DNA from: an uncultured Gammaproteobacteria bacterium
GTDB lineage: Bacteria > Patescibacteriota > Microgenomatia > UBA8517
Length of the DNA: 64,000 bases
Direction of reading: 5' to 3'
NCBI GenBank assembly: GCA_964540475.1
Contig: CAZIMC010000002.1
Coordinates: 6,709 to 70,708 of the forward strand
Shown: piece by piece, positions 25,620 to 49,534 of the stretch
Position numbering within the stretch: the first letter of the stretch is position 1
Layout: each line of letters starts with the position of its first letter
Made by a program: the position numbers and the translations under genes
Notes under the pieces: generated by a model
Told to the model about the DNA's origin: nothing
Databases searched by the model: none
Seen by the model: only the letters and a program-made list of their open reading frames with translations

Positions 25620-25911
25620 AGTTAATAGGATTGCTGAGAAGGAGCACAGTAGGTTTTTCTGGTGGCCATAGAGAGAACTGGTGGTTGGTGCAAACCAGTC
25701 GTACAGAAAAAAGCGAATTACACTCTGGAGCTGGTTTAAAGTAAATTAAACCCGGGTCGCCCGTAATAGCAAAAGGCGTGTCGCGCGAGTGATAAGCCCG
25801 AAAAGGTTAAGATGGTAACATTTTAACGAATCAAGGTGGTACCGCCTTAGAATGAAGGCCCTTGTTTGAACCTAGCATGTGGGTTCAAACAAGGGCCTTT
25901 TTTGATTTTAT
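25620..25911 (+). promoter_or_regulatory. Structured non-coding leader element L2, paralog of L1. It shares the GCAAACC-containing hairpin, the AAGGTGGTACCGCC-TTAGAA box, and a terminator hairpin of different sequence but the same position (covariation).
   Basis: ggtggtaccgcc at 25836-25847. Hairpin aaggcccttgtttgaacc...ggttcaaacaagggcctt plus U5 at 25855-25903. ATG at 25912. Confidence 0.55.
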
Positions 25912-26841
25912 ATGCCAGAAAGAATAAAAGACAAACAGGAACTGAAAGATATGTTTGTGTCTCAACCGACAATTGGGACAATTCTGCGTGTGTTGGATAA
26001 TGAAGTATACAGAAATTCGCATTTAGAAGAGCGTTTGGGATGGGTGGGAATATCTGGTAGTAAGGCTAGACATGCTGGGCTTGAAGGAAAGAACGGGGTG
26101 GTGAGTGACGAAGACTTGGTTATTATCCTAAAGGGATCTTCACAAAATGACCCATTAAACATGCAAGCTTATGAACAAGTCCTTGATTGTATTAATCAGG
26201 CAACGAAAATTATGGTTGAGGAAAAGGGTATTATTCCTGTATATGCATCAACAATCAGACTGGAAGATGCGCAAATGGCGCTTGCTAGACTGATTCATGC
26301 AAGTGGTCAGATAAGGATGATACACTCTCTAATTTATCCGTCTCCTGAGGCAGTGGTTGCGTTTGAACCGCCGCTTCTGGCACGCAATCTAGTAGGCCAA
26401 GCCCTGACTCTTTGGGGTGATGAAAGAATAGCAGAGGATGTAAACCGATCAGCCAGAAATGGTGCACGCGTAGAAAACATAAACTTGACGATAGGTGGAC
26501 TTGATGGAATCAGTGATAATTTTAGAATGCTCAGAACAAATAGACATGTCCTGCCGGCTCTATTCTTGGGCCCGCAGGCCGTGCATGTTCTTGACTACAG
26601 TGTAAAATGGGCAATGGCTCAAGTTGTAGAAAAAGCTGGTGGAGCAGAATGCGCAACTTGGGGTGAAATAATAGATAATTTTCCCTCTGAGGAGGGCGGT
26701 CAATTGTTGATAGAGGTAGTAAAAAAGATTAGACTGCTTCGGGCCCAAGAGGAACATGTCGATTTGGATGAATTAGAAAATCTATATAGAGAGGTAATTT
26801 CCTTGTGGCCACTATTTACCTCTATTAGAAGCGGAAAGTGA
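25912..26841 (+). CDS. Pol-beta-superfamily nucleotidyltransferase domain protein (309 aa). It resembles the ANT/AadA-like or CD-NTase-like GS...DxD architecture. Substrate unknown.
   Basis: GISGSKARHAGLEGKNGVVSDEDLVIIL fits the hG[GS]-x9-13-[DE]h[DE]h NTase active-site motif. Confidence 0.55.
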   Translation: MPERIKDKQELKDMFVSQPTIGTILRVLDNEVYRNSHLEERLGWVGISGSKARHAGLEGKNGVVSDEDLVIILKGSSQNDPLNMQAYEQVLDCINQATKIMVEEKGIIPVYASTIRLEDAQMALARLIHASGQIRMIHSLIYPSPEAVVAFEPPLLARNLVGQALTLWGDERIAEDVNRSARNGARVENINLTIGGLDGISDNFRMLRTNRHVLPALFLGPQAVHVLDYSVKWAMAQVVEKAGGAECATWGEIIDNFPSEEGGQLLIEVVKKIRLLRAQEEHVDLDELENLYREVISLWPLFTSIRSGK

Positions 26842-27764: not shown

Positions 27765-29009
27765 ATGGCAGTTGAGATTGATATACATCCACAATCAAAC
27801 GGAGTTGTTGATAGGACGGATTGGGCTCGAGAAAACCTTCCGTTTCTTGATGCAAGAGGGGAGCTTGTTTATTTGAAGGAATGGCGAGATTCAAAAAGCT
27901 CCGCAGTGGGGTGGTTGGCAAGATGGGGTGACCCAGAAGTAAATGTTTCTGGTGGAGGTGTGCGTATGAAAATAGGTGGACAACCTCATGAAGCTGTATT
28001 TCTTGCATCAACAATGTATGAAAAATTCGGCATAGCAGGACCTCAGATTAACGGATCGAAATTTGTTATAGATTATGATCCCACTGCACCAGACAAGTTG
28101 GATGTACTGGACAGATTTCTCACAGCATTTTTGCTGGATCTTGAAAATGTGGGCACTGCTGGCGACTTAAATGTTTCTGAAAGTGAGGTGGCAGGTGTTT
28201 TGGGAAGGCACGGTATAGGCAATCCACAGCAAGGAATTCTTAAGTCCTTGGGTATTGAAGGCAACCTGGGAAGGTTGACTCAACTTATGAGAATGCCTTT
28301 TTCTGAAAGTTTTAGTCCAAAGCACAGTCACCTAATGGATGTTACGGCGGGTTGGAGCACGTACATTGCTACTGAAACGTACTTTAGAAAAATGGGTATG
28401 GATTTGCATGGTCGCACAATTGCAATTCAAGGGATAGGAGCGGTTGGGGGTAGCGCGGCTTACTTTTTCGAAAAAGCTGGCGCAAGGGTCGTTGCCGCTG
28501 CTGATGCACAAGGATCCTTCCGTATCGGCCCCGGGGGATTAACGTCTTGCCTTAGAAACATAGATACGGTAACAGGATGTGTGCCTCGAGAGAAAGGGCT
28601 AGAGGTTGCGGGAGATTCTCAGGCAATTCTTCAGATTCCAGTGGACGTTTTAGTGCTCGCTGCGAAATCGGAAGTTGTGGGCCTAGAAGAAGCAAGATGT
28701 ATACAAGCCCCGCTTATAGTAGAAGGAGCAAATCATCCCATCCTGCGTGATGCCGAAAAGTATCTCACACAGCGGGGGGTAAAAGTTTTGCCAGACTTTA
28801 TTGCTAATGCGGGCACCGCTGAATTTTTCACTATTGGTATGTTGGGAAGCGAGGAACTTTCCGAACAGGGCGTATTAGACCAGGTTGCGCAGATTACTAT
28901 AAACGCTATGACAGAAACCATTGAAACCGCTGACAATTCGGGATTAACGTATAGACAGGCAGCTCAGATAGTATCTACCAATAACTTGTGGCAGAAAGTT
29001 GTGAGATAA
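27765..29009 (+). CDS. Glu/Leu/Phe/Val-dehydrogenase-family amino-acid dehydrogenase-like protein. It is visibly more G+C-rich than its neighbours.
   Basis: Rossmann GIGAVGGSAAYFFEKAGARVVAAAD and C-terminal VLPDFIANAGTAEF resemble the family. The N-terminal catalytic Lys/GGG box is not clearly conserved. Confidence 0.55.
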   Translation: MAVEIDIHPQSNGVVDRTDWARENLPFLDARGELVYLKEWRDSKSSAVGWLARWGDPEVNVSGGGVRMKIGGQPHEAVFLASTMYEKFGIAGPQINGSKFVIDYDPTAPDKLDVLDRFLTAFLLDLENVGTAGDLNVSESEVAGVLGRHGIGNPQQGILKSLGIEGNLGRLTQLMRMPFSESFSPKHSHLMDVTAGWSTYIATETYFRKMGMDLHGRTIAIQGIGAVGGSAAYFFEKAGARVVAAADAQGSFRIGPGGLTSCLRNIDTVTGCVPREKGLEVAGDSQAILQIPVDVLVLAAKSEVVGLEEARCIQAPLIVEGANHPILRDAEKYLTQRGVKVLPDFIANAGTAEFFTIGMLGSEELSEQGVLDQVAQITINAMTETIETADNSGLTYRQAAQIVSTNNLWQKVVR

Positions 29010-33070: not shown

Positions 33071-33404
33071 TAAAAATTTGAGTTCCTTCAGCTTCGTTCA
33101 TGCCCTGCAAAATAACTTCCTTCGATACATATCTCAGTCGAACATATTTTGCTCTGATAGAGTATTCACTCAGCCAAATGAAAGCAAATTTTTAAAGGCG
33201 ATAAAGCACTAACCCATTGCTGACTCGCGTGCTCGGAACACTATTTGTGGCCGCGATCGCTAGTCAGCAGGGACCCGCAAAAGTGGACGCCGACGCGAGA
33301 GGCAGTAAACGTCTGCCATTTGATTGCTAAGGGAAGGCTAATTATTGCATATTTAAAACTTAAATTGCTAGAGGTGGCGGAAAGCGCACTGAAAATAGTA
33401 TAAT

Positions 33405-34268
33405 ATGGCTACTTTCTTTAACTTAAATCCCATGCGTAAACCTTTCATATTATTGGCGTTTTTAGTAAGTCTTTTCGGTAGCTTTTTTGCAAGTACGGCA
33501 GTTTTTGCGCAAGCTCAGGTTACTGAGGAGAAAGTAGAATTACAGCAGCAGGTTACAGGATTAGAATTGCAACTTGAAACTCAAGAATTAGGGCCAGTGC
33601 TGCCATTTAACCCAGTTAAATACGCTATACGCCGTGCGGTGTCTGCAGGTGTTCCAGCAAACACAATTGTAATGCTACTCCTTTTACCATTAGTAGCTGC
33701 CATCATAGCTGCAACACGGCATATTGTGGGGCTTCGGGGGTTTGGGATTTTTCTTCCTGCCGCTCTGGCCGTAACATTTCTGGCGATTGGTCCGCTTTTG
33801 GGAATAGGGTTATTTTTAATAATTGTTACTGTTTCAACAATTTCAAGAATTACACTCAGGCGTCTCAAGTTAAAGCTTCAGTACTTGCCCCGCATGGCAT
33901 TAATTTTATGGTTCGTGTCATTTGCCGTTTTGGTGGTACTGTTCGCTGCACCACTGGCTCCGCTTTTGGGGTTAGCGAACATTTCTATCTTTGCTGTTCT
34001 AATATTAGCCCTGTTGGCCGAAGACTTCACCCGGGTTCAGTTAGGCAAGAGTGCCAAGGTGGCTGTGAATTTAACGATTGAGACTATTATTCTGGCTTTA
34101 ATCTCATTCTTCTTCTTGACCTTGCCTGCTATCCAAGCATTTGCACTTCTGCGACCAGAAATTATGTTACTTGGCATATTTGCTTTCAATCTATTACTTG
34201 GTCGTTACACGGGTCTTCGACTTTTGGAAATTTGGCGGTTCAGGAAAATGATTTTTAACTTGAAATGA
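33405..34268 (+). CDS. Signal peptide plus 7TM membrane protein of the type that partners RimK-like ATP-grasp ligases (7TM_transglut-like). No transglutaminase-like domain is present.
   Basis: Seven hydrophobic helices after a coiled N-terminal segment. ATGA overlap with the downstream ATP-grasp gene. Family assignment is by architecture and context, so this is an inference. Confidence 0.5.
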   Translation: MATFFNLNPMRKPFILLAFLVSLFGSFFASTAVFAQAQVTEEKVELQQQVTGLELQLETQELGPVLPFNPVKYAIRRAVSAGVPANTIVMLLLLPLVAAIIAATRHIVGLRGFGIFLPAALAVTFLAIGPLLGIGLFLIIVTVSTISRITLRRLKLKLQYLPRMALILWFVSFAVLVVLFAAPLAPLLGLANISIFAVLILALLAEDFTRVQLGKSAKVAVNLTIETIILALISFFFLTLPAIQAFALLRPEIMLLGIFAFNLLLGRYTGLRLLEIWRFRKMIFNLK

Positions 34269-35584
34269 AGTTAGCTAATGTCCTTGGTCTAAACGCAAGA
34301 TCGCAATTGTTTGCCTACAAATACAATAATCTGCGTAGTAAAAAGGTGGCAGATTCAAAAATCCAAACTGCACGGATATTGGCAAACGCCGGTGTTCCGA
34401 CCCCTCAACTTTATCAGAAGTTCAGAAATGCAAGAGAAATATTTAATTTTGATTGGCTTACATTACCTGATTCGTTTGCTCTAAAGCCAAGTAAAGGCTT
34501 GGGAGGGGAGGGTATCATTGTCATAAAAAAACGTAGCGAAGGCGGAGAAGGCTATATAACTACACAAAGGAAAAAAGTTACTCCAGATGACTTGAAACTT
34601 CACGCATTGGATATAGTAGAAGGTGCATTTAGTATGACGAGTGAGCCGGATGTTGCTTTGGTTCAGGAGTATGTGGGAAGACATAAGGCGTTTAGAAAGT
34701 ACGCCTATCGCGGCACTCCGGATATAAGAATTATAGTTTTTAATAAAGTGCCTGTTATGGCTATGCTTCGGCTTCCAACTAAAGAATCAGGGGGTCGGGC
34801 GAATATGTTTCAAGGAGCAATTGCGGTTGGTGTTGATATAGCCACGGGAATTACCACCAGGGCAGTTCTTCATGGTGATTTAATTACCTATAAACCTGGA
34901 ACTAAACGTAAACTGCGAGGAATTAAAATACCCAACTGGACAGAAGTATTAGAAACCGCAGTTAAGGCCCAGATTGCATCGGGACTGGGATACTTGGGTG
35001 TTGATATCGTATTGCACCCGGAGAAGGGACCCCAGGTTTTAGAATTAAATGCCCAGCCGGGGCTTAAGATTCAACTTGCGAATATGGCAGGGCTAAAGAA
35101 GCGTTTAGAAAGAGTTGAAGATTTAGAAGTACGCGATGCCGAGCATGGTGTTAAAATTGCAAAAGCTCTTTTTGCCTCTTCATTTGCCACCAAGGTAAAG
35201 CCGGATGAGTCACTGAAGATAATAGAGCCAGTTGAAACTGTAAAAGTTTTGTCGGCCAGCGGGAAGAAGGAAGGTGTTTTGGCGAGGATTGATACTGGCG
35301 CTGTAAGAAGTTCAATAGACAAAGGCTTAGCAGATAAGCTTGGACTAATGACTAAGGAGAACATACTTTGGAAAGATAGATATGAGTACAGGTCGGCAAC
35401 AGGTTTACAAACTCGTCCAGTAATCGGTATAACCTTTTGGTTAGGAGGAAAGAAAAAAGTTACAAGCGCTTCGGTTGCCGACAGATCGAAAATGCAATAC
35501 AAGATGTTGATTGGAAGAAGGGATATGAGTGGTTTTCTTGTAAAGCCGGAATTTACCGGCCAATCTCCTCTAGGTAGTCAATAA
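34265..35584 (+). CDS. RimK-like ATP-grasp ligase (alpha-L-glutamate-ligase-related) fused to a C-terminal retropepsin-like 'putative ATP-dependent Zn protease' domain
   Basis: ATP-grasp core (ALKPSKGLGGEGIIVIKK...VLELNAQPG). C-terminal RIDTGAVRSSID...MLIGRRDMSGF resembles the PF05618 aspartyl-protease-like domain. Confidence 0.7.
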   Translation: MKLANVLGLNARSQLFAYKYNNLRSKKVADSKIQTARILANAGVPTPQLYQKFRNAREIFNFDWLTLPDSFALKPSKGLGGEGIIVIKKRSEGGEGYITTQRKKVTPDDLKLHALDIVEGAFSMTSEPDVALVQEYVGRHKAFRKYAYRGTPDIRIIVFNKVPVMAMLRLPTKESGGRANMFQGAIAVGVDIATGITTRAVLHGDLITYKPGTKRKLRGIKIPNWTEVLETAVKAQIASGLGYLGVDIVLHPEKGPQVLELNAQPGLKIQLANMAGLKKRLERVEDLEVRDAEHGVKIAKALFASSFATKVKPDESLKIIEPVETVKVLSASGKKEGVLARIDTGAVRSSIDKGLADKLGLMTKENILWKDRYEYRSATGLQTRPVIGITFWLGGKKKVTSASVADRSKMQYKMLIGRRDMSGFLVKPEFTGQSPLGSQ

Positions 35585-36389
35585 TCCTGGAAGCAACATT
35601 TATACCGGTAGTCTTTGTAAAGCCTTCCCATTGCGGAATACTGTTTGTCTCGATCATATAAACCTTTTCTTTGTTTTGCATAAAATCTACGCCTGCAATT
35701 TCTAGGTCAAGATTTTTACATATTAGTTCAGACATGTTAAAAAGTCTCATTCTCAGGTCGGCATTTTCGACTTTCTCACCGAAACCTCCGAGGGATATAT
35801 TGGCCCTAAATTCTCCCTGTTTCGGCCTACGCTTAAAAGTACCCACCGCCTTGCCCCCCACAACTATAACCCGATAATCTCCGTCGTTTTCAAGGAATTC
35901 TTGAAGGATAAAACTTGTCAGGTTTGTGGATTCTATTGTAGCTTTAAGTTCATCATTATCTTTACAGAGGAAAACGCCTTCTCCTTTAGCGCTTATATTA
36001 CTTTTAACGACGAGGGGAAAGCCTAGAATTTTGGAAGCATTTTCAATTGCATTTCTCGAAGATTTAATGAAAAATGTTTTAGGGGTCGGTATACCCAGCT
36101 TTTGTGCTTCCGAGATTTGGTAATATTTCCTTCCTATTAAAGGTTTCGTGGCATACGCAGTGTTGATAAACGGAATACTGCGCAAGAGTGCCTCCTTTGC
36201 AACAACACTTCTTTTTTCTGGATGCCCAACGCGCCAATATATAGCCTGGTGTGACTCAAAAAAATTGCCAAAGGGCACTGGGATGATATCGGAATTGATA
36301 ACATCCAAGACATGACTCCTTCTCTTTGCCACTTCAAAGAGATTTTTGTCTTGGAAAAACTGACCCGTCGAGATTAGTGCGAATTTCAT
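35553..36389 (-). CDS. RimK-family ATP-grasp ligase (paralog 2). Start assigned to MKFALIS; the ORF track extends to 36425.
   Basis: KGEGVFLCKDNDEL and LDLEIAGVDFMQ...YMIETNSIPQWEGF ATP-grasp motifs. Confidence 0.75.
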   Translation of the reverse strand: MKFALISTGQFFQDKNLFEVAKRRSHVLDVINSDIIPVPFGNFFESHQAIYWRVGHPEKRSVVAKEALLRSIPFINTAYATKPLIGRKYYQISEAQKLGIPTPKTFFIKSSRNAIENASKILGFPLVVKSNISAKGEGVFLCKDNDELKATIESTNLTSFILQEFLENDGDYRVIVVGGKAVGTFKRRPKQGEFRANISLGGFGEKVENADLRMRLFNMSELICKNLDLEIAGVDFMQNKEKVYMIETNSIPQWEGFTKTTGINVASRIIDYLEEIGR

Positions 36390-37351
36390 ATCGTAAGTTT
36401 TGGTCCGGAAAACAAGCCGTTCCACTCCGCCAGTAGCATTATAACTAAAGTATTGGCGTGCTCAAATAAGGCGTCCTTTGATTCATTCAGATCGAGTAGT
36501 CCAGTATCCTCGTTAACTTTTTGGTAAATTAGCTCTTTATAACCTTCTAGCTCCGTCTCGTAGTCTGGATTTAACTTAAACACTACGCCGGTTTCAGCAA
36601 TCAGGTCAAGATTTTGTGAATTAAAGATATAAGACCTATTAGATTTAAAGTATTCATAAACCCAGCAATACTCTTTGTTGTTAGGGTATTTTTGGTAATA
36701 ACCAGAATCAGCAATAAGGATGTGTGTGTACGCATAAATGTTATTCAAAAAATTAAATTCTGAGGTGGTATTAATTTTAGTGGCAGGGTAAAGGAGTTTG
36801 AGAGATTTTATAACGCTATCGGTAATATTGGTTATTTCCAAATCTTTTAACCAGAATGCTAAATTTATATTCTGAACAGGATCAAAAAATAGTAGATCAT
36901 TATCTGAGAATATTTTTTTCCAATCAATTCTGCCTAATCTTGTGATGGCCACTTTATATCCTTGTGAGTTAAGATATTTGCTAACTTGGTAATCTGAAAT
37001 TTTTAGCATTAAATAAATCAAACTTTGATAATATTTTATTTCTGGATGTTTTTCGTAATACTCCCATCGTATTTTTTTGAGGGGGGATAGATCTTTAAGA
37101 AGATTTAGTTTTTCTAACCCTTCCCGTTTCTCTTTACTTATATCTCCGGCAATTTTAGCTTTGTTCTCAAAATCCCGCATTAATTCCTGGAAAGCACTGG
37201 AAAGTGGAGGAATAAACCGTGCTTGACCTGTGACTCTATACATACGCTCATAAAAGTGAAGTTTTCTGTTAGGCCTAAAGCTTTCTATTCTTTTGGCTAG
37301 ATTGGTTATGGCCCGCTCTGAAGCTTTCTTGTAAATTGGGTTTGCTGTCAT
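36386..37351 (-). CDS. Conserved hypothetical protein (321 aa) embedded between two ATP-grasp genes with overlapping stop/start codons
   Basis: ORF only. Translational coupling on both sides. No domain recognised by eye. Confidence 0.6.
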   Translation of the reverse strand: MTANPIYKKASERAITNLAKRIESFRPNRKLHFYERMYRVTGQARFIPPLSSAFQELMRDFENKAKIAGDISKEKREGLEKLNLLKDLSPLKKIRWEYYEKHPEIKYYQSLIYLMLKISDYQVSKYLNSQGYKVAITRLGRIDWKKIFSDNDLLFFDPVQNINLAFWLKDLEITNITDSVIKSLKLLYPATKINTTSEFNFLNNIYAYTHILIADSGYYQKYPNNKEYCWVYEYFKSNRSYIFNSQNLDLIAETGVVFKLNPDYETELEGYKELIYQKVNEDTGLLDLNESKDALFEHANTLVIMLLAEWNGLFSGPKLTI

Positions 37352-38187
37352 TAAAGTTGTGAAAGCCTTGCCACGATTTTTTTAGCCACACTGACTCCGG
37401 TTATTTCTTCTAAAGTTTTAAAACCAGCGTCTATGTTTATCTCCAATATCCTGGGCTTTCCGCCAATATGGATGATATCAACACCCAGACAGTCAGCTTC
37501 TAGATGTTTTGAGGCAGAAAGAGCAAGAGAGACCTCTTCATTTGTGGGGGTATAGTTTTCTGAAATACCGTCAATGGCAGATTTAAAACTATTAGTTGCA
37601 ATCCTCTTATACGAGGCAACAACGCTTTCTCCTACAACAAAAATTCTTAAATCATACCCAGTATCAATAAATGGTTGTATAAACACATTTGCTAAACGAT
37701 GTTTTTTTAACTCAAGACTTAAATCTTTTTCGGAATTAACTTTCCAAACCTTCTTGGACCTATTTCCTTTGGTTGCTTTTAATATTACAGGAAAATCAAA
37801 AGGGGATTTGAAATTAGATTTTAAGGATTGAAAGCTTGGAACAACAGGAATCCCGGCCTCTTCAAGTACTAAATACTCGATTAGTTTGTTGTAATCAGGT
37901 AATTTAAGAATTAAGTTTTTGTTAAATGTCTTTACCCCAAGCTCATCTGCTTTTCTCACAAGGATTGTTCGTTGATTATAATATCCGTCGCTTATTCTGG
38001 TTAGCAGGTGTGTATATTCCCTGAGTGGTTTTTCCCCAAGCTCGATTTGTAAACCGTTTTCTCCCCAGTGAAAGCAGACCTCTTTCCAGTTATATATGTC
38101 AATTACCTGAAAATTTTCTCTTGCCTCTTGGCAGATTCTCTTGATTGAATATAAGCTTTTTTTATTACCAATAATAGCCAACTTCAT
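37351..38187 (-). CDS. RimK-family ATP-grasp ligase (paralog 3)
   Basis: DLRIFVVGESVVASYKR and GVDIIHIGGKPRILEINIDAGF ATP-grasp motifs. Confidence 0.75.
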   Translation of the reverse strand: MKLAIIGNKKSLYSIKRICQEARENFQVIDIYNWKEVCFHWGENGLQIELGEKPLREYTHLLTRISDGYYNQRTILVRKADELGVKTFNKNLILKLPDYNKLIEYLVLEEAGIPVVPSFQSLKSNFKSPFDFPVILKATKGNRSKKVWKVNSEKDLSLELKKHRLANVFIQPFIDTGYDLRIFVVGESVVASYKRIATNSFKSAIDGISENYTPTNEEVSLALSASKHLEADCLGVDIIHIGGKPRILEINIDAGFKTLEEITGVSVAKKIVARLSQL

Positions 38188-38242
38188 GATGAGTTGTTAA
38201 ATTATATCAAAGAAGCTATTCATTTGGTAAAATAGGTAAGAT

Positions 38243-39133
38243 ATGAAGTTATTGGTATTAAACCGGAGTAGGAACGATTACGCAAAAGGGAGGTTTTTAA
38301 GTGAAGCGAGAAATTTAGGAATTGAGGCAAATGTTATAAACTATTCGCATCTTCATATTTTTCTAAAGGAAGGCCGGTTAAGCGTCACTGCGATGGATGG
38401 ACAGAACTTAGAAGACTTTGACTTGATGGTTGTAAGAAGCCCGGGTTTGACCAACCGTTATACTTGGCAGGAAAGAGTAATTATCGAGTGGATGCATGGT
38501 TACGGGAAAAGAGTTCTTAACTATGATTCTTTAACAACTTACCCGGGAGAATTTGATAAGCTTTTGCAAACGCATATATTCCTAAAAAACGGTATTCCTT
38601 TTGTTGAAACCCACAGTTTGGGCACTTCCACCTTTTTGGAACAGAATGTACTTACATATCCATTTATTTTAAAACGAACAATGGGAAGTTTGGGTCGCGA
38701 CTTTATAGTGGTTAGAAGCAAAGTCCAGTTAGATGAGTTTTTAAGAGATAAGAGTTTGTTCGAGTTTATTGCGCAGCCATTTTTGCCTACAGGCGCGGAC
38801 TTTCGGGTTATTGTTCTGGGGGGGCAAGTTCTGGGAGCAATGAAACGAAGTACCGATTCTCCCGACAAGCCAACAAATGCCGCGGCAGGCGGACGAGTTG
38901 AAAAGGCAGAATTAACTCCCAAGCTTGAAGAACTCGCCCTAAGAGCGGCAAAAAGCCTGAGTTGTGAATTTTGCGGGGTTGATATTATGCATGACCTGGA
39001 AGGAACTGCATACGTATTGGAGGTTAACAGATATTCTGTCTTTAAAGAGTTTGAAAAAGTTACCGGAGTTAATGTTGCAGGGAAAATCATTGAGTATTTA
39101 ATTGCAACTGTTAAAAATGACGGAAAATCCTAA
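38243..39133 (+). CDS. RimK-family ATP-grasp ligase (paralog 4)
   Basis: DFRVIVLGGQVLGAMKR and CGVDIMHDLEGTAYVLEVNRYS ATP-grasp motifs. Confidence 0.75.
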   Translation: MKLLVLNRSRNDYAKGRFLSEARNLGIEANVINYSHLHIFLKEGRLSVTAMDGQNLEDFDLMVVRSPGLTNRYTWQERVIIEWMHGYGKRVLNYDSLTTYPGEFDKLLQTHIFLKNGIPFVETHSLGTSTFLEQNVLTYPFILKRTMGSLGRDFIVVRSKVQLDEFLRDKSLFEFIAQPFLPTGADFRVIVLGGQVLGAMKRSTDSPDKPTNAAAGGRVEKAELTPKLEELALRAAKSLSCEFCGVDIMHDLEGTAYVLEVNRYSVFKEFEKVTGVNVAGKIIEYLIATVKNDGKS

Positions 39134-39860
39134 ATCACCGGAAGTTTTGTCGCGGGGGAAAGTTTTAATAATAAATGCTTCACCCGGCAGAAACGCCCAT
39201 TTTGAAATAGCCGAAAGACTTTTTGATATCAAATCCGATACATTTGATAGTTTCGGAAACGCTGTAGTAAATCAGATAAAATCTCCGCCAAAAGAGGCTG
39301 GAATAACAAATACTCAAAGGTCAAATCAATCAGAGCTTGCTTTACCAGATTCCGTCGATGACTTTAAAGCCATAATTGTTAGCGGGAGTCCATATTCAGC
39401 CTATCCTTATGAAAGGAAAGAAGGGGGATATAAGCTTGCTTGGTGGAAACACGATCTTTTGCAGTTTGTATCACAGGCTGTTCGTTCTGGTAAACCCTAT
39501 TTTGGCATATGTTTTGGTGCGCAGATTCTAGCCGAAGCAACCGGTGGAAGGGTAGTTGAAATGCGCTCCGTAATGGGTAAAAAGCTAATCGAAAAGGGCT
39601 ATAGCATGGTCAACAAGTCTGCGGGTGCATTTAGTGATTCTGTGATGCGCGAATTGCCTGATAACTTTGTTGTAGACCAGAATCACTGGTCAGTTGTTGC
39701 AAACCTTCCCCCTGGTGGTGTTTTACTTGCTGAGAATAAATATGGAGTACAGGCCTTCAAAGTGGGGAATGCATATGGGGTGGAATTTCACCCAGAAAGG
39801 GGTACGCCCGTTACAGACTCACTGTTTAGGAATTTTCTCCAACTGGCTTGGAAAGAGTAG
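39102..39860 (+). CDS. Class-I glutamine amidotransferase-like / peptidase C26 (gamma-glutamyl hydrolase-like)
   Basis: Nucleophile Cys in YFGICFGAQILAEA, His in VEFHPE. 252 aa. Confidence 0.7.
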   Translation: MQLLKMTENPKSPEVLSRGKVLIINASPGRNAHFEIAERLFDIKSDTFDSFGNAVVNQIKSPPKEAGITNTQRSNQSELALPDSVDDFKAIIVSGSPYSAYPYERKEGGYKLAWWKHDLLQFVSQAVRSGKPYFGICFGAQILAEATGGRVVEMRSVMGKKLIEKGYSMVNKSAGAFSDSVMRELPDNFVVDQNHWSVVANLPPGGVLLAENKYGVQAFKVGNAYGVEFHPERGTPVTDSLFRNFLQLAWKE

Positions 39861-39874
39861 TGCTTTAAACCAAA

Positions 39875-39905
39875 AATCCGAACCTTGAGGTTCGGATTGC
39901 TTTGG
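39875..39905. terminator. Bidirectional hairpin terminator between convergent genes
   Basis: aatccgaacc-ttga-ggttcggatt followed by gcttt. Confidence 0.65.
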
Positions 39906-39966: not shown

Positions 39967-40431
39967 TTACTTCAACTCTACCGTAGCACCCGCAGCTTTG
40001 AGTTTCTCTTCAGCAGCTTTTGCATCTTCAGCTTTTGCATCTTTCAAAACCTCTGCAGGAACTGCTTCGGTCATTCCCTTGGCATCCATAAGAGTTAAGT
40101 TTTGATTAATCTCACGAAGTGCTTTGATAACAGCAATTTTGTTAGCTCCTGCATTGGTCATAACAACTGTTTGGTTTGCGCCTCCAGCTGTTTCAGCTGC
40201 AGGTGTGTCACCATTTGCTGCAGGTGCTGCAACGGTAGGAGCGGCTACTGGCATCGCAGAAACTCCAAGTTTGTCTTGGAGCGCATTAACCAATTCTGAA
40301 AGCTCCAAAACTGAAAGTTCTGAAATTGAGTCTACTAATTTAGAAACATTTGAAGAAAGCTTTTTCTCCTCTTTTGATTCTTCCTTAGCTACTTCTTTTA
40401 CTTCTTCTTGATTTGTTGGTTCATCAGCCAT
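39967..40431 (-). CDS. rplL: Ribosomal protein bL12 (L7/L12) with an E/K-rich N-terminal extension of about 25 aa
   Basis: ANKIAVIKALREI...AEEKLKAAGATVELK C-terminal domain. Confidence 0.9.
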   Translation of the reverse strand: MADEPTNQEEVKEVAKEESKEEKKLSSNVSKLVDSISELSVLELSELVNALQDKLGVSAMPVAAPTVAAPAANGDTPAAETAGGANQTVVMTNAGANKIAVIKALREINQNLTLMDAKGMTEAVPAEVLKDAKAEDAKAAEEKLKAAGATVELK

Positions 40432-40436
40432 TATTT

Positions 40437-40961
40437 TTATTCACCGCCTCTCGACTTCTGATCTAAAATATAAACTAATTTCTGCAAATTTCCATTAAGC
40501 GTTCCCACTAGACCATAAGTGGGGGACATTAAGGCCCCTAAGACTTGGCCAAGTAGAGCATCCCGTCCTGGTAACGTTGAAAGTTTGGTTAGCCCTGCTT
40601 CGTCCTGGAACATTCCTTCGACAATGCCAATTTTAAATTTGGGAATTTCGTTTTCCTTGGCAAATTTACCTAATACTTGAATTGGAGCAATTGGGTCTTC
40701 ATCTGCCAAAATTAAAGCGGTCTGGCCGGAAAGAACTGTATCTGCAAAATTAGTTGTATCCAATTTTGCTTCCTTTGCTGCAAGTTTTAGCAGTGTGTTT
40801 TTAACCACCAGCATACGCCCATTGGCTTCTTTAAGCTTTTTTTTAAGATCCTGTTGAGATTTAACTGAAAGCCCTGCGTAGTTAACCAATACGAGAGCTT
40901 TAGAACCTTTTAATTCCTCTCTTAAATTTTCCACAAAAGCTTGTTTGTCTGTTTTGTTCAT
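40437..40961 (-). CDS. rplJ: Ribosomal protein uL10
   Basis: Position upstream of rplL and a typical L10 N-terminus (MNKTDKQAFVENLREELKGSKALVLVNYAGLSV). Confidence 0.9.
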   Translation of the reverse strand: MNKTDKQAFVENLREELKGSKALVLVNYAGLSVKSQQDLKKKLKEANGRMLVVKNTLLKLAAKEAKLDTTNFADTVLSGQTALILADEDPIAPIQVLGKFAKENEIPKFKIGIVEGMFQDEAGLTKLSTLPGRDALLGQVLGALMSPTYGLVGTLNGNLQKLVYILDQKSRGGE

Positions 40962-41158
40962 TTTTACATTAAAAAAGGCACCATCGAGGTGCCAAAATCT
41001 AGTGCCTAGTTTCTACCGGTGAAACCGGCCAAGCTTAGCTTATTGCCTAGTGCCTAGTTTTTTACCCTCGGTACGACTTATGAATGCGTACTGTCTTCGG
41101 ACAACTGTTAATATATCAAAACTCTAATATAAACGCAAATACGCCAAATACCCTAAAC
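40962..41158 (-). promoter_or_regulatory. rplJ 5' leader region (expected L10(L12)4 autoregulatory leader). It contains a hairpin and one copy of the GGCCAAGCTTAGCTTA motif.
   Basis: ggcaccatcgaggtgcc hairpin. Motif at 41026-41041. Confidence 0.4.
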
Positions 41159-41959
41159 TTATTTGACCTCTACCTTAACAGACGGACCCATTGAGGCCTT
41201 GGTGTAAACGCTAATAATCTGCTTATTGCCCCCCAAAGCCTTGAAAATGCTTTCTGCATTTTCCACCAACTTTCCGGTCTCCTGGCTTACTTTACCAATT
41301 GCAGTGTGAATTAGGGGAGCTGACTTTTCGGTTTTCAGAGTTACCGAATTAGCAGAATAATTTTTAGCTTTAGAGGGGTCAGAAATAAGAGTTTCATTTT
41401 TTGGATTTGGCATCATACCCCTGGGGCCTAGGATTCTTGCAAATGGGACTAATTTTGGCATCATGTCAGGGGTTGCCAAAAGTACGTCAAAGTCAACTTT
41501 TCCTTCGCTTAATTTTTTAATTGTTTCATCGGTCGCAACCTCAACTCTTTTTTCTTTTCCTGTTGAGTTGGGGAGAGTGACGTTTGCGCTCGTACCAACC
41601 CTCTTAACCATTATATGAAGCTCAACTGAGCCGTCAAAACTTGAATATGATGTTTCCTGAGCCAGTTTTATTGCCTCAGGGAGATTATATGCCTTGCCTT
41701 GCGCGACTTTGGCCTTTGCTTCATCGTATTTCTTTGAGCGGGTTCTTGGCTTCGTAGCTTCTTTGGTTTTCTTGGTATCTTTATCACCCAGTTTCTCAGT
41801 ATCTTCTGGTAGTTGTTCAGCTTCTACAATCTTAACCCTCCTTTGTCCGCCTTTCAATCCTGCCACGCGAACCCTTCGGCTTTGCTCAGGGCCTTTAGCC
41901 TTATCCTTATTTTTATCTTGCGTTTCTTCGCCAATGAATGCGGTTTTAGTTTTTCCCAT
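41159..41959 (-). CDS. rplA: Ribosomal protein uL1 with a K-rich N-terminal extension. Start set at MGKTKTAF, 2 nt after the rplK stop.
   Basis: L1 core (ATPDMMPKLVPFARILGPRGMMPNPK). The ORF-track start at 42004 would overlap rplK by 44 nt. Confidence 0.85.
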   Translation of the reverse strand: MGKTKTAFIGEETQDKNKDKAKGPEQSRRVRVAGLKGGQRRVKIVEAEQLPEDTEKLGDKDTKKTKEATKPRTRSKKYDEAKAKVAQGKAYNLPEAIKLAQETSYSSFDGSVELHIMVKRVGTSANVTLPNSTGKEKRVEVATDETIKKLSEGKVDFDVLLATPDMMPKLVPFARILGPRGMMPNPKNETLISDPSKAKNYSANSVTLKTEKSAPLIHTAIGKVSQETGKLVENAESIFKALGGNKQIISVYTKASMGPSVKVEVK

Positions 41960-41960
41960 T

Positions 41961-42386
41961 TTATTCTGTCTTGACCCCCATGCTTCTTGCCACACCTTCA
42001 ACAACCCGTTTGGCAGATTCTAAATTGTCTGTATTAAGATCGTCAATTTTGTCCTTAGCGATGGCTTCAACCTGATCTCTGGTAAGTGTTCCAACAATTT
42101 CTTTGGGAGTTGAACCTGAACCCTTCTCAAGACCCAGTGTTTTCTTAATCATGTCCGCAATTGGTGCTTTTTTGATCTCAAAATCAAATGTCCTGTCTTC
42201 ATAGATTGTGATAACAGCAGGTACGACTTGCCCGCGCATATCGGCGGTTTTGTCGTTATACGCCTTAACAAAATCCATAATTGCAACACCGTGCTGCCCC
42301 AATGCCGTTCCTACCGGAGGAGCGGGAGTTGCTTCTCCTGCTTTAAGATTAATTTTTACGACTGTTTTTATTTTTTTAGCGGCCAT
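41961..42386 (-). CDS. rplK: Ribosomal protein uL11
   Basis: MAAKKIKTVVKINLKAGEATPAPPVGTALGQHGVAIMDF. Confidence 0.95.
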   Translation of the reverse strand: MAAKKIKTVVKINLKAGEATPAPPVGTALGQHGVAIMDFVKAYNDKTADMRGQVVPAVITIYEDRTFDFEIKKAPIADMIKKTLGLEKGSGSTPKEIVGTLTRDQVEAIAKDKIDDLNTDNLESAKRVVEGVARSMGVKTE

Positions 42387-48272: not shown

Positions 48273-49052
48273 ATGATAAATTTGGTTCAACCAAGCCGAA
48301 TTGAGCAAATTTACACAAGCATATTAGCTTTTAAGTCGTTAAAGCCTAACAACGAGGTAAACACAGCGTTTGAAAACTTAGTTAGATACTCACTTAGTCA
48401 ACATAAAATTGAACTAGATGTTAGAAAAATAAGTCGCCTTCAAAAAATATGCAGCAAAGCAGAATATGAGCTTGAGCTGCACTGGAGTAAATTAATAGCA
48501 AAAAGTGATAATTCCTGGGAAAAACTGCGACAGTTTCCATACCACAAGAACTATCAAGGTCTGACGAAAATGGAATGGCTCAGTTTACTTGGTTGTACGA
48601 ACCATAAAAGTCATTCTGTACTTTTTATTGGTGGCGGGCCACTTCCGCTTACAGCAATTGAATTAGCTAAAAACTACAATATTCCAGTCACAGTCCTCGA
48701 GAGAGTAAAAGAGGCTGCAGTTTTATCTAATAAATTAATTACCAAGTTGCAGCTTGGCGACAGAGTTAAGATATTACAAAGAGACGCGGCACGTTTTCAG
48801 GATTATTCAAAGTACAACGTCATATTTTTGGCTGCATTAGCGGGGGTTAAGGCAGATGAAAAAACTAGAATATTATCGCTTTTTAAAACACATGCAAAAT
48901 CCGGGACACATATTTTAGCAAGAAGTAGTTGGGGTAATCGCAAGCTACTTTATAAACCACTCAACGTTCGGGAAATAATGATGCTTAAGCCGATTTTGGA
49001 AGTCAGGCCTCATAATGACGTGGTCAATTCTGTAATAATTTTCCAAGTATGA
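48273..49052 (+). CDS. Nicotianamine-synthase-like (NAS/CntL-like) SAM-dependent aminobutyryl transferase
   Basis: LFIGGGPLPLTAIELA and VIFLAALAGVKADEKTRIL...GTHILARSSWGNRKLLYKP match conserved NAS blocks. Confidence 0.7.
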   Translation: MINLVQPSRIEQIYTSILAFKSLKPNNEVNTAFENLVRYSLSQHKIELDVRKISRLQKICSKAEYELELHWSKLIAKSDNSWEKLRQFPYHKNYQGLTKMEWLSLLGCTNHKSHSVLFIGGGPLPLTAIELAKNYNIPVTVLERVKEAAVLSNKLITKLQLGDRVKILQRDAARFQDYSKYNVIFLAALAGVKADEKTRILSLFKTHAKSGTHILARSSWGNRKLLYKPLNVREIMMLKPILEVRPHNDVVNSVIIFQV

Positions 49053-49534
49053 GAATTATTATTCCATCTGAAATGAAACTCTCACTTGTGAGGGATTTTA
49101 TGTTGTTTATAGTTGAGGACGATTTTAATTATAAGTTTAACCCGGAATGGCACTGGGATATTGCGTCACTTAAGGAGACTTACTTAAATTCCAAGAGCTT
49201 ACTGTTGGCAGCAGAAGAGAAAGGTGAGATTATTGCAACTATTGCCGGGCGGCCATACGACCGGGATTATAGAAAACTAAAAGGAAAATATGATAATAAT
49301 ACGTTGGGAGTTTGGAGGCACTATGTTAAAAAAGAGTTACGCGGCAACGGAATTGGGACAAAATTATTAGATGAGTTTGAGAAACAAGCAAAGAATAAGG
49401 GCTATAAAAAGCTATACCTTCATACACAAAAAACAATACCTGGTTCACTTGAATATTGGCTCGCCAAGGGTTACCTGATTACAAATGATACTAATGATCG
49501 GTTTAAGACCGTTCACTTAGAGAAAACTTTTTAA
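49049..49534 (+). CDS. GNAT-family N-acetyltransferase, ATGA-coupled to the NAS-like gene
   Basis: Acetyl-CoA binding motif RGNGIGTKLLDEFEKQAKNKGYKKLYLHT. Confidence 0.75.
   Translation: MRIIIPSEMKLSLVRDFMLFIVEDDFNYKFNPEWHWDIASLKETYLNSKSLLLAAEEKGEIIATIAGRPYDRDYRKLKGKYDNNTLGVWRHYVKKELRGNGIGTKLLDEFEKQAKNKGYKKLYLHTQKTIPGSLEYWLAKGYLITNDTNDRFKTVHLEKTF

Follow-up and report, generated by a model that had tools for sequence, protein, structure and literature searches.

A cluster of seven genes, named here g1 to g7, occupies positions 33405-39860 of a 64,000-nt stretch of DNA (the window, meaning this whole stretch) taken from contig CAZIMC010000002.1 of assembly GCA_964540475.1, positions 6,709-70,708 of the forward strand. 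The source is by name an uncultured Gammaproteobacteria bacterium, and its GTDB lineage is Bacteria; Patescibacteriota; Microgenomatia; UBA8517. The cluster encodes a seven-transmembrane (7TM) protein, a fusion of an ATP-grasp ligase to a retropepsin-like protease domain, three further ATP-grasp ligases, a member of the uncharacterised family DUF3541, and an amidotransferase-like protein, and it converges on a ribosomal protein operon. All seven open reading frames (ORFs) named in an initial annotation of this DNA are present. Families were assigned by Pfam and NCBIfam profile searches; an exact look-up of g4 returned no record, and in NCBI protein clusters at 90% identity the window proteins are singletons. 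The features of the locus are as follows.

33394..33402, + strand: -10-like conserved TAGTATAAT box upstream of the 7TM gene; the same AAATAGTATAATAT stretch precedes the 7TM gene in the window, L001 and L005
33405..34268, + strand: g1, signal peptide plus 7TM membrane protein (PF14402 7TM_transglut, 6e-24)
34265..35584, + strand: g2, RloC-type ATP-grasp ligase fused to an RloA/RimB-type retropepsin (PF14397, TIGR02291, PF05618)
35553..36425, - strand: g3, RimK-family ligase of rare subfamily R6 (RimK, 2e-38)
36386..37351, - strand: g4, DUF3541 protein, 321 aa, a candidate cytoplasmic (alpha/alpha)6-barrel enzyme (PF12060, 1e-37)
37351..38187, - strand: g5, RimK-family ligase with Rimk_N, rare subfamily R7 (RimK, 5e-22; Rimk_N, 2e-7)
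38188..38242, no strand: divergent g5/g6 spacer, 55 bp, with a promoter-like site for the g5-g4-g3 unit
38243..39133, + strand: g6, RimK-family ligase with Rimk_N, rare subfamily R9 (RimK, 3e-27; Rimk_N, 3e-7)
39102..39860, + strand: g7, stand-alone class-I glutamine amidotransferase-like protein (GATase, 9e-19; Peptidase_C26, 2e-7)
39875..39898, no strand: terminator-like 10-bp perfect hairpin between the convergent g7 and rplL
39967-42386, - strand: rplL-rplJ-rplA-rplK, with rplL itself at 39967-40431

(Labels such as L001 denote related contigs or loci in the comparison set.) The genes had been described as a contiguous, translationally coupled run on both strands. Both strands are indeed used, but the junctions divide the run into three units, g1-g2, g5-g4-g3 and g6-g7. 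Within units the genes overlap by 4 nt (g1/g2, ATGA), 1 nt (g5/g4), 4 nt (g4/g3) and 17-32 nt (g6/g7), while the convergent g2 and g3 overlap by 32 nt. Orthologs place the start of g1 probably at Met10 (33432), 30 nt downstream of the TAGTATAAT box that is conserved in three genomes (the window, L001 and L005), and that of g3 probably at Met13 (36389), which creates the ATGA overlap with the g4 stop; g7 starts at TTG 39102 or ATG 39117. A promoter-like TTACCA-18-(TG)TATAAT on the minus strand at 38230-38201 is predicted to serve g5-g4-g3, and the divergent order of g6 and g5 is kept in L008 and L094. The hairpin between g7 and rplL is terminator-like and would separate the ligase cluster from rplL transcriptionally.

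The center of the system is the g1-g2 pair. As the initial annotation proposed, g1 is a signal-peptide and 7TM protein, by its PF14402 match and by a hydropathy profile with a signal peptide and multiple transmembrane segments. It aligns only to positions 312-506 of the 508-position RloB model NF052267, the C-terminal 7TM part (62 bits against a cut-off of 900), and only about 60 non-homologous residues separate its signal peptide from the first transmembrane segment. Its orthologs are 41-66% identical. Homology shows g1 to be a protein of the RloB 7TM type, with predicted translational coupling to g2.

The ligase domain of g2 (residues ~5-291) matches PF14397 ATPgrasp_ST at 2e-67 (227.7 bits, cut-off 31.4). 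Against TIGR02291 it reaches 8e-79 and 264.9 bits, under the "hypothetical equivalog" cut-off of 314.2, so that membership is at the level of the family rather than of orthology. The C-terminal retropepsin domain (residues ~318-430) matches PF05618 at 2e-8 and can be aligned, K/R-[IL]-DTGA motif included, with the sequences of the RloA crystal structures 9g58/9g59. The DTGA motif lies at residue 343, the predicted catalytic D343 is encoded at window 35291-35293, and the GVD/ELN ligand motifs of the ligase lie at 245/260; D343, G345, A346, D247, E260 and N262 are invariant in 35 homologs. A Foldseek search with the g2 model returns ArgX/RimK for the N-terminal part and RloA, RloA2 and the Ddi1 retropepsin for the C-terminal part, each with probability 1.0 (the full-length model has a mean predicted local distance difference test score, pLDDT, of 62, is confident only in the protease domain, and is used for domain-level matches only). 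The names NCBIfam gives to the matching families are RloB, RloA1-3 and "alpha-L-glutamate ligase-like". By homology, g2 is shown to combine a predicted RloC-type ATP-dependent amide ligase and an RloA/RimB-type retropepsin in one cytoplasmic polypeptide. The fusion of a ligase to a PF05618-type aspartyl-protease-like domain had been recognized already, and the invariant DTGA bears it out; a free, unfused PF05618 gene does not occur in the window. In two loci g1 and g2 are themselves fused in single ORFs, L010:11801-13987 (728 aa) and L085:8071-10191 (706 aa); apart from this, L010 and L009 are near-identical, yet L009 has g1 and g2 as separate genes, and a frameshift or assembly difference may affect one of these two contigs.

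This pair is widespread. Database relatives of g2 below 1e-20 number more than 4,600, and the best 120 of them are 63-76% identical, nearly all have the same fusion, and those with names are Patescibacteria, Woesebacteria or Microgenomates. A g2-based search of one genome per GTDB species confirmed the g1+g2 pair at 291 loci, mostly in Woesebacteria, plus Blackburn-, Woyke- and Shapirobacteria; 80 loci were kept and analyzed. (The productive DNA scans were those with the g2 query and with a g6 pair alignment.) For a census of neighborhoods, ORFs were called in 91 sequences and classified against the window proteins, giving 71 non-redundant loci. The conserved core in this census is the 7TM protein plus the ligase-retropepsin fusion, 55-76% identical. 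In 71 of 71 census loci, rplL-rplJ...rplA-rplK...nusG lie beyond g1-g2 on the opposite strand, so that the core is tail-to-tail with rplL, and the window conforms; in L009 the core is not beside rplL and occupies a different genomic site. The system had been called unexpected in a reduced genome, a view that 291 confirmed loci overturn for the core pair.

What does vary is the gap between g2 and rplL, which ranges from 94 to 5,506 bp (median 2.7 kb, 71 loci) and holds a different island of genes in different species. RimK-like ligases are found there in 63 of 71 loci, 110 copies in all, and usually overlap or abut g2; 23 loci have one, 33 have two and 7 have three. The possession of four ligases is consequently not distinctive of the window, as three ligases beyond the core occur in those 7 of 71 loci. 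Larger ATP-grasp_3 proteins (470-790 aa) occur in 7 loci, 6 of them among the 8 loci that lack RimK-like genes. At an identity of at least 38%, the criterion by which subfamilies (R-numbers) were defined, the island ligases fall into about 14 subfamilies, with recurrent cassettes R3-R2, R0-methyltransferase-(u203)-(R1/R4), R1-R5-(R4) and AG3. The companions of the ligases are an S-adenosylmethionine-dependent methyltransferase whose best matches are carboxyl O-methyltransferases (23 loci), a family of ~203 aa, u203 (11 loci), a family of ~600 aa (5 loci plus L008), a family of ~200 aa, u200 (5 loci), GNAT (2 loci), DUF3541 (3 loci plus L031, L008, L009, L007 and L094) and a g7-like amidotransferase (3 loci: the window, L081 and L068). 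The accessory enzymes across the islands are all of carboxylate-capping, amine-capping or peptidase-like types. TrpR-like, EVE and toxin-antitoxin genes in the gap are probable bystanders.

The ~600-aa family (L008:4089-5834, L013:12674-14497, L015, L041, L047 and L080) carries HExxH and an invariant Glu about 28 residues downstream, a gluzincin-like signature, and has no Pfam, NCBIfam or PDB-profile match. Its assignment as a MATCAP/DUF1704-type carboxypeptidase was considered and rejected, the signature HExxH...E being all that spoke for it. Of the 11 islands with u203 (e.g. L058:6663-7274), 10 have it beside the methyltransferase; Pfam and NCBIfam give no match for u203 or for u200 (e.g. 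L042:13181-13783). Insertions, for example an IS1595 transposase or ORFs of unknown kind, also occur between rplJ and rplA (L002:16694-17581; L001:14283-15209; and several further loci), and the whole rplKAJL region is for that reason judged insertion-tolerant in this clade.

The cassette in the window is a rare one, its subfamilies R6, R7 and R9 (g3, g5 and g6) being found only in the window among census loci. All four ligases of the cluster have intact GVD...ExN ligand motifs for Mg/ATP (ELN in g2, ETN in g3, EIN in g5, EVN in g6), and these motifs and the profile scores uphold the call of four ATP-grasp ligases in the initial annotation. Its placement of all four in the RimK family holds for three of them; g2 belongs to the RloC or "alpha-L-glutamate ligase-like" clade. 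PF08443 scores are 132 bits for g3, 79 for g5 and 96 for g6 (cut-off 21), and TIGR00768 scores are 147.8, 101.3 and 136.9, of which g3 is just above the cut-off of 143.4. Even g3 is under every equivalog cut-off, and with the S6--L-glutamate ligase equivalog PRK10446 the three score 82.1 (g3), 63.3 (g5) and 61.5 bits (g6), all far under the cut-off of 331. The solved structures closest to g6 are RimK (5zct/4iwx, 7e-17). We infer that none of the three is orthologous to a characterized RimK-family member.

The four ligases share only 20-33% identity, g2 being barely alignable with the other three, and the arrangement of the window, in which g1-g2 converges on g3-g4-g5 and this set diverges from g6, recurs with one-to-one orthologs on three other contigs. 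L094 (4.6 kb, from a JGI metagenome) has the end of g2 convergent with g3 (48%), g4 (40%) and g5 (48%), which diverge from g6 (50%), followed by an unrelated nuclease. L008 (9.5 kb) has rplKAJL, two small genes, the HExxH protein (581 aa), and g6 (57%) divergent from g5 (44%), g4 (36%) and g3 (43%), where the contig ends. L009/L010 (JGI), away from rplL, has a g6-like gene (34%) divergent from g4 (33%) and g3 (46%), which converge on g2 (57%) and g1 (41%); g5 is missing from L009. A 1.1-kb contig (L007) shows g4 (40%) and then the start of a g3 ortholog. Orthologs of g3 are thus 43-48% identical across L008, L009 and L094, and those of g5 44-48% across L008 and L094. The conserved unit is g1-g2 / g3-g4-(g5) / g6, and the slot after g6 is variable, holding an amidotransferase, an HExxH protein or nothing. 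Among the loci examined whose contig extends far enough, the R6/DUF3541 cassette is never seen without g2. Because the layout recurs with one-to-one orthologs on three other contigs, g3, g5 and g6 are taken to be ancient specialized paralogs, and the synteny and divergence together dispose of the alternative raised at the outset, that they are recent tandem duplicates.

Protein g4 had been noted as a 321-aa unknown between two ligases. It does lie between g5 and g3, but it is not an orphan: it matches PF12060 (DUF3541) at 129.7 bits (cut-off 28.2) over profile positions 11-313 of 330 and keeps all residues that are invariant in this named but uncharacterised family. Its model is a confidently predicted (alpha/alpha)6 barrel, for which the LanC-like, six-hairpin glycosidase and AGE epimerase superfamilies were considered, and a Foldseek search with the DUF3541 model gave no significant match. 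This is a rare family; among 1.84 billion representatives it accounts for 244 clusters at 50% identity. Its invariant residues are enzyme-like (R36, N163, Y206, H210, Y219, D249, E253, H298), with H32, R39, T209, S216, Q220, E297 and N300 near-invariant, and seven orthologs from the candidate phyla radiation (CPR) keep them with one substitution each at T209 and S216. Set beside the DUF3541 proteins of other bacteria, g4 is a full-length member with every invariant residue. Many of those proteins are longer, by 30-60 residues at the N-terminus or by a PF00144 beta-lactamase-type domain at the C-terminus, whereas CPR members are bare, cytoplasmic and located in ligase operons. In seven CPR loci DUF3541 adjoins ligases of three subfamilies, and L091 has a fusion of DUF3541 to an ATP-grasp domain with two further ATP-grasp genes behind it. 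The fusion and the operonic embedding among ligases tie DUF3541 functionally to what is predicted to be ATP-grasp amide-bond chemistry. Further searches added little: word-index searches with g4 or a DUF3541 alignment returned the query itself and beta-lactamase fusions only, two DNA-pattern scans with DUF3541 alignments (one of genome contigs, one of metagenome contigs) found nothing, and a literature search for DUF3541 found nothing, a search by the Pfam accession giving one unrelated paper only.

The remaining protein, g7, had been described as a class-I amidotransferase or C26 gamma-glutamyl-hydrolase-like enzyme. The class-I assignment is sound, with 68.3 bits to PF00117 (cut-off 22.8), a match to PRK09065 at 2e-22, and intact triad motifs (Cys137 in a GICFG nucleophile elbow; His230-Pro-Glu); the C26 likeness is weaker, at 31.2 bits to PF07722 (cut-off 20.5). 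The closest solved chains are the GATase domain of GMP synthase (3e-10), TM1158, and plant gamma-glutamyl peptidase 1 (9k7i, 3e-6). By these profile scores g7 is better placed as a GuaA-type amidotransferase than as a C26 peptidase, and it may either donate ammonia to a ligase for carboxylate amidation or hydrolyze gamma-glutamyl or amide bonds. Homologs that share these motifs are found behind other cassettes (R3-R2 in L081, AG3-AG3 in L068), while g7 is missing from L094 and L009 and an HExxH protein stands in its place in L008. It is a recurrent but optional accessory of the island, not the fixed "dedicated hydrolase" first proposed. The putative metallopeptidase in the same slot of L008 slightly favors a trimming role.

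The Rlo system of Pseudomonas matters for envelope integrity, biofilm formation and antibiotic tolerance. Its operon encodes the retropepsin RloA, the 7TM/inactive transglutaminase protein RloB and the ATP-grasp protein RloC (PMC12239564), and the same three modules are encoded together here. In Pseudomonas, an rloA triple protease mutant shows osmotic, biofilm and shape defects that are suppressed once rloB or rloC is deleted (PMC12239564), which argues that the 7TM protein, the ligase and the protease belong to one process. The window differs in that the ligase carries the protease at its C-terminus, and this protease, having no signal peptide, would be cytoplasmic, where RloA is separate and secreted; in that the 7TM protein lacks the periplasmic transglutaminase-like ectodomain of RloB; and in that this lineage adds 0-3 further ATP-grasp ligases and tailoring enzymes beside the core. 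The RimK-RimB and RimBK systems (PMC11957791) likewise join a ligase to a retropepsin, and characterized cases trim poly-alpha-glutamate: RimB and RloA cleave poly-Glu, RimB stimulates poly-alpha-Glu synthesis by RimK, and an active RimB-RimK hybrid exists (PMC11957791). RimBK, however, has its protease at the N-terminus and RimK proper as its ligase, whereas in g2 the order is reversed, the ligase is RloC-type, and a 7TM partner is present. The ligases g3, g5 and g6 are of the RimK family, with RimK as nearest solved structure, but fall far under the S6-ligase equivalog, and no link to S6 is seen. Synthesis of the osmolyte N-acetylglutaminylglutamine amide (NAGGN) by an Ngg acetyltransferase-ligase and AsnO (PMC8070244) offers an analogy only, in the common logic of an ATP-dependent peptide ligase plus capping of carboxyl and amine groups; here the capping enzymes would be the amidotransferase in the window and GNAT or the methyltransferase in sister islands, and g7 is a class I, triad-type enzyme whereas AsnO is of the asparagine-synthetase type. 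In the LysX/ArgX-LysW systems RimK-family ligases act on the C-terminal glutamate of a partner, while the window has neither carrier nor Lys/Arg enzymes and its scores are sub-equivalog.

We judge the chances about even that the cluster is, in Patescibacteria, a compact relative of the Rlo system known from Pseudomonas, and that it makes an acidic peptide at the membrane and trims it, swappable tailoring ligases acting on the same product. By analogy to Rim and Rlo, the g2 ligase would build a glutamate-rich alpha-peptide, or a tail on an acceptor, and its retropepsin would trim or prime that peptide or tail; g1 would place the process at the membrane, through product export, anchoring, or as the acceptor itself. 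The ligases g3, g5 and g6 would work on the same product, each adding a further residue in extension, branching or priming. The g4 barrel would carry out a non-ligase step (hydrolysis, cyclization and epimerization are candidates), and g7 would cap or trim, either by letting g6 amidate a carboxylate with glutamine-derived ammonia or by hydrolyzing a gamma-glutamyl or amide bond. Other species hold different cassettes at the same site. A fixed housekeeping molecule is therefore a less probable product than a short, end-capped acidic peptide or poly-amino acid that varies between species. The earlier suggestion of a multi-step tailing and trimming or short-peptide system fits this modular census, apart from its fixed amidotransferase.

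Several points weigh against this Rlo-like reading. Transcription of g3-g5 runs against that of g1-g2. The missing RloB-type transglutaminase-like ectodomain and a protease that is cytoplasmic instead of secreted may mean that the Pseudomonas model does not apply here. The g2 model is of low confidence in the ligase domain, and the function suggested for DUF3541 draws on predicted fold class and conserved residues only. Finally, the island also gathers clearly unrelated genes (TrpR-like, EVE, toxin-antitoxin, transposase), and position alone is for this reason weak evidence.

That last point is the starting place of an alternative we consider unlikely: that g1-g2 is one system, while g3-g4-g5 and g6-g7 belong to independent, merely co-located pathways that make free small molecules, such as a capped di- to tetrapeptide osmolyte or storage compound (NAGGN-like or N-acetyl-aspartyl-glutamate-like), the gap being a tolerated insertion site. 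The TrpR-like, EVE, PIN/antitoxin and transposase genes of the gap fit it, as do the divergent promoter region that g3-g5 and g6-g7 have to themselves, the making of NAGGN by a ligase and an amidotransferase (PMC8070244), and the inclusion in the RimK family of the small-molecule ligases MptN and CofF, whose models match g3, g5 and g6 at 1e-14 to 1e-30. Mere tolerance of insertion, however, does not predict RimK-like genes in 63 of 71 gaps, mostly abutting g2, nor a cassette that in L009 has moved together with g1-g2 to a site away from rplL, nor the lack of any examined locus, on contigs long enough to tell, with the R6/DUF3541 cassette and no g2. Modification of ribosomal proteins is improbable, although the adjacency to rplL-rplJ-rplA-rplK, which the initial annotation correctly reported, invites it. 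Here the ligases would put tails on a ribosomal protein (S6, L7/L12 or another), to be trimmed by the retropepsin and g7. RimK and RimB set the precedent (PMC11957791), the solved structures nearest g6 are RimK, rplL is adjacent in about 70 loci, and the L009 cluster lies 2.8 kb from rpsF. But the adjacency is accounted for by vertical inheritance in one clade and is missing in L009; the cluster converges on rplL with the terminator-like hairpin between them; g3, g5 and g6 reach 61-82 bits against the 331 of the S6-ligase equivalog; the conserved C-terminus of L12 is ...VELK, and the only S6 observed (near the L009 cluster) has ...INQE at its end rather than Glu-Glu. No rpsF gene lies within the 64-kb window. 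The presence of a dedicated 7TM protein, in some loci fused to the ligase, points instead to the membrane, and a variable ligase complement is hard to square with a conserved ribosomal target. The neighborhood of rplL is best read as inherited convergent synteny and not as a hint of ribosome tailing.

Two further alternatives are very improbable. In one, the ligases serve amino-acid or cofactor biosynthesis, as LysX/ArgX do with a LysW carrier, or glutamylate F420 or tetrahydromethanopterin. LysX, MptN and CofF models match g3, g5 and g6 at 1e-14 to 1e-31, and ArgX is the top Foldseek match of the g2 model, yet the scores are far under equivalog cut-offs (LysX 73-107 bits against 275.6), neither a LysW-like small ORF nor LysZ/Y/J/K genes occur in or beside the cluster, and the intergenic spaces leave no room for a carrier gene. 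In the other, with hardly any probability either, the ATP-grasp enzymes would cyclize a ribosomal precursor peptide, as in graspetides, a class of RiPPs, peptides made by the ribosome and modified after translation. Weak matches to ATP-grasp RiPP maturase models (TIGR04187, MvdC; 1e-5 to 1e-7), PsnB among the Foldseek matches, and a predicted DUF3541 barrel that resembles LanC-like cyclase domains at the level of the fold lend it some color. Against it, the tightly packed cluster has no precursor-sized ORF with a plausible core, and the affinity to RimK is much stronger than that to graspetide ligases. No convincing small carrier or precursor ORF of any kind was found in or beside the cluster. 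A defense-system reading was also tried and rejected, as PADLOC anti-phage defense models match none of the seven proteins.

Some other features of the window deserve mention. Between an ABC transporter and g1 lies a GC-rich stretch of ~120-170 nt (33210-33330) that folds better than shuffled sequences (z -2.8). A riboswitch upstream of g1 was considered and discarded: the stretch and the region upstream of g1 have no Rfam match, and the structured stretch is missing from the L001 and L005 spacers, which excludes it from the system. An insertion, a small RNA and a leader for the minus-strand ABC transporter are its possible identities. The product of rplL, L7/L12 (39967-40431, - strand), is 154 aa long with a Glu/Lys-rich N-terminal extension of ~30 residues, and its relatives have 135-173 aa. 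Upstream of the cluster by 4.4 kb is a Glu/Leu/Phe/Val dehydrogenase-family gene (27765-29009, + strand), a possible glutamate source or sink. A T-box leader (105 bits; 25627-25866, + strand) precedes a 309-aa ORF (25912-26841), which has no Pfam match, and a metallo-beta-lactamase-fold gene; this T-box may thus control a gene of unknown family that is not a synthetase. At 48273-49534 (+ strand) there is a gene of the nicotianamine synthase family (PF03059, 3e-52) that shares a few bases with an overlapping GNAT acetyltransferase gene, a metallophore-type pair unusual for a reduced Patescibacterial genome.

The component families are already known, as is the three-module core in Proteobacteria. 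The ligase-retropepsin fusion with a bare 7TM partner, its conservation in Microgenomatia, the variable ATP-grasp island attached to it, and the partnership of DUF3541 with ligases appear to be undescribed in the searchable literature; a literature search on Woesebacteria with ATP-grasp found nothing. Judged from its spread over at least 291 species-level Patescibacterial genomes, the ligase-protease-7TM triad is ancient and has been retained in very small genomes, and its minimal, fused core offers simpler proteins for biochemistry. The cluster gives DUF3541 its first functional context, a partnership with ATP-grasp amide ligases, and the comparison removes an attractive but unsupported inference, from rplL neighborhood to ribosome modification. 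The island is a natural experiment, and comparison of its cassettes should reveal the core product and its diversification. Tentatively, as a possibility to which we give rather low probability, we suggest further that Microgenomatia have a conserved, membrane-coupled ligase-protease engine to which interchangeable cassettes are attached, made up of stand-alone ATP-grasp ligases with DUF3541, an HExxH protein, methyltransferase, GNAT or amidotransferase. Together these would assemble, on the envelope or through it, an end-capped, non-ribosomal peptide or branched poly-amino acid specific to each species, and DUF3541 would be a new peptide-modifying family of (alpha/alpha)6-barrel enzymes. If true, these organisms would carry a variable surface or secreted "peptide code", with a logic like that of O-antigen loci, which may possibly serve osmotic balance or the attachment of episymbionts to their hosts.

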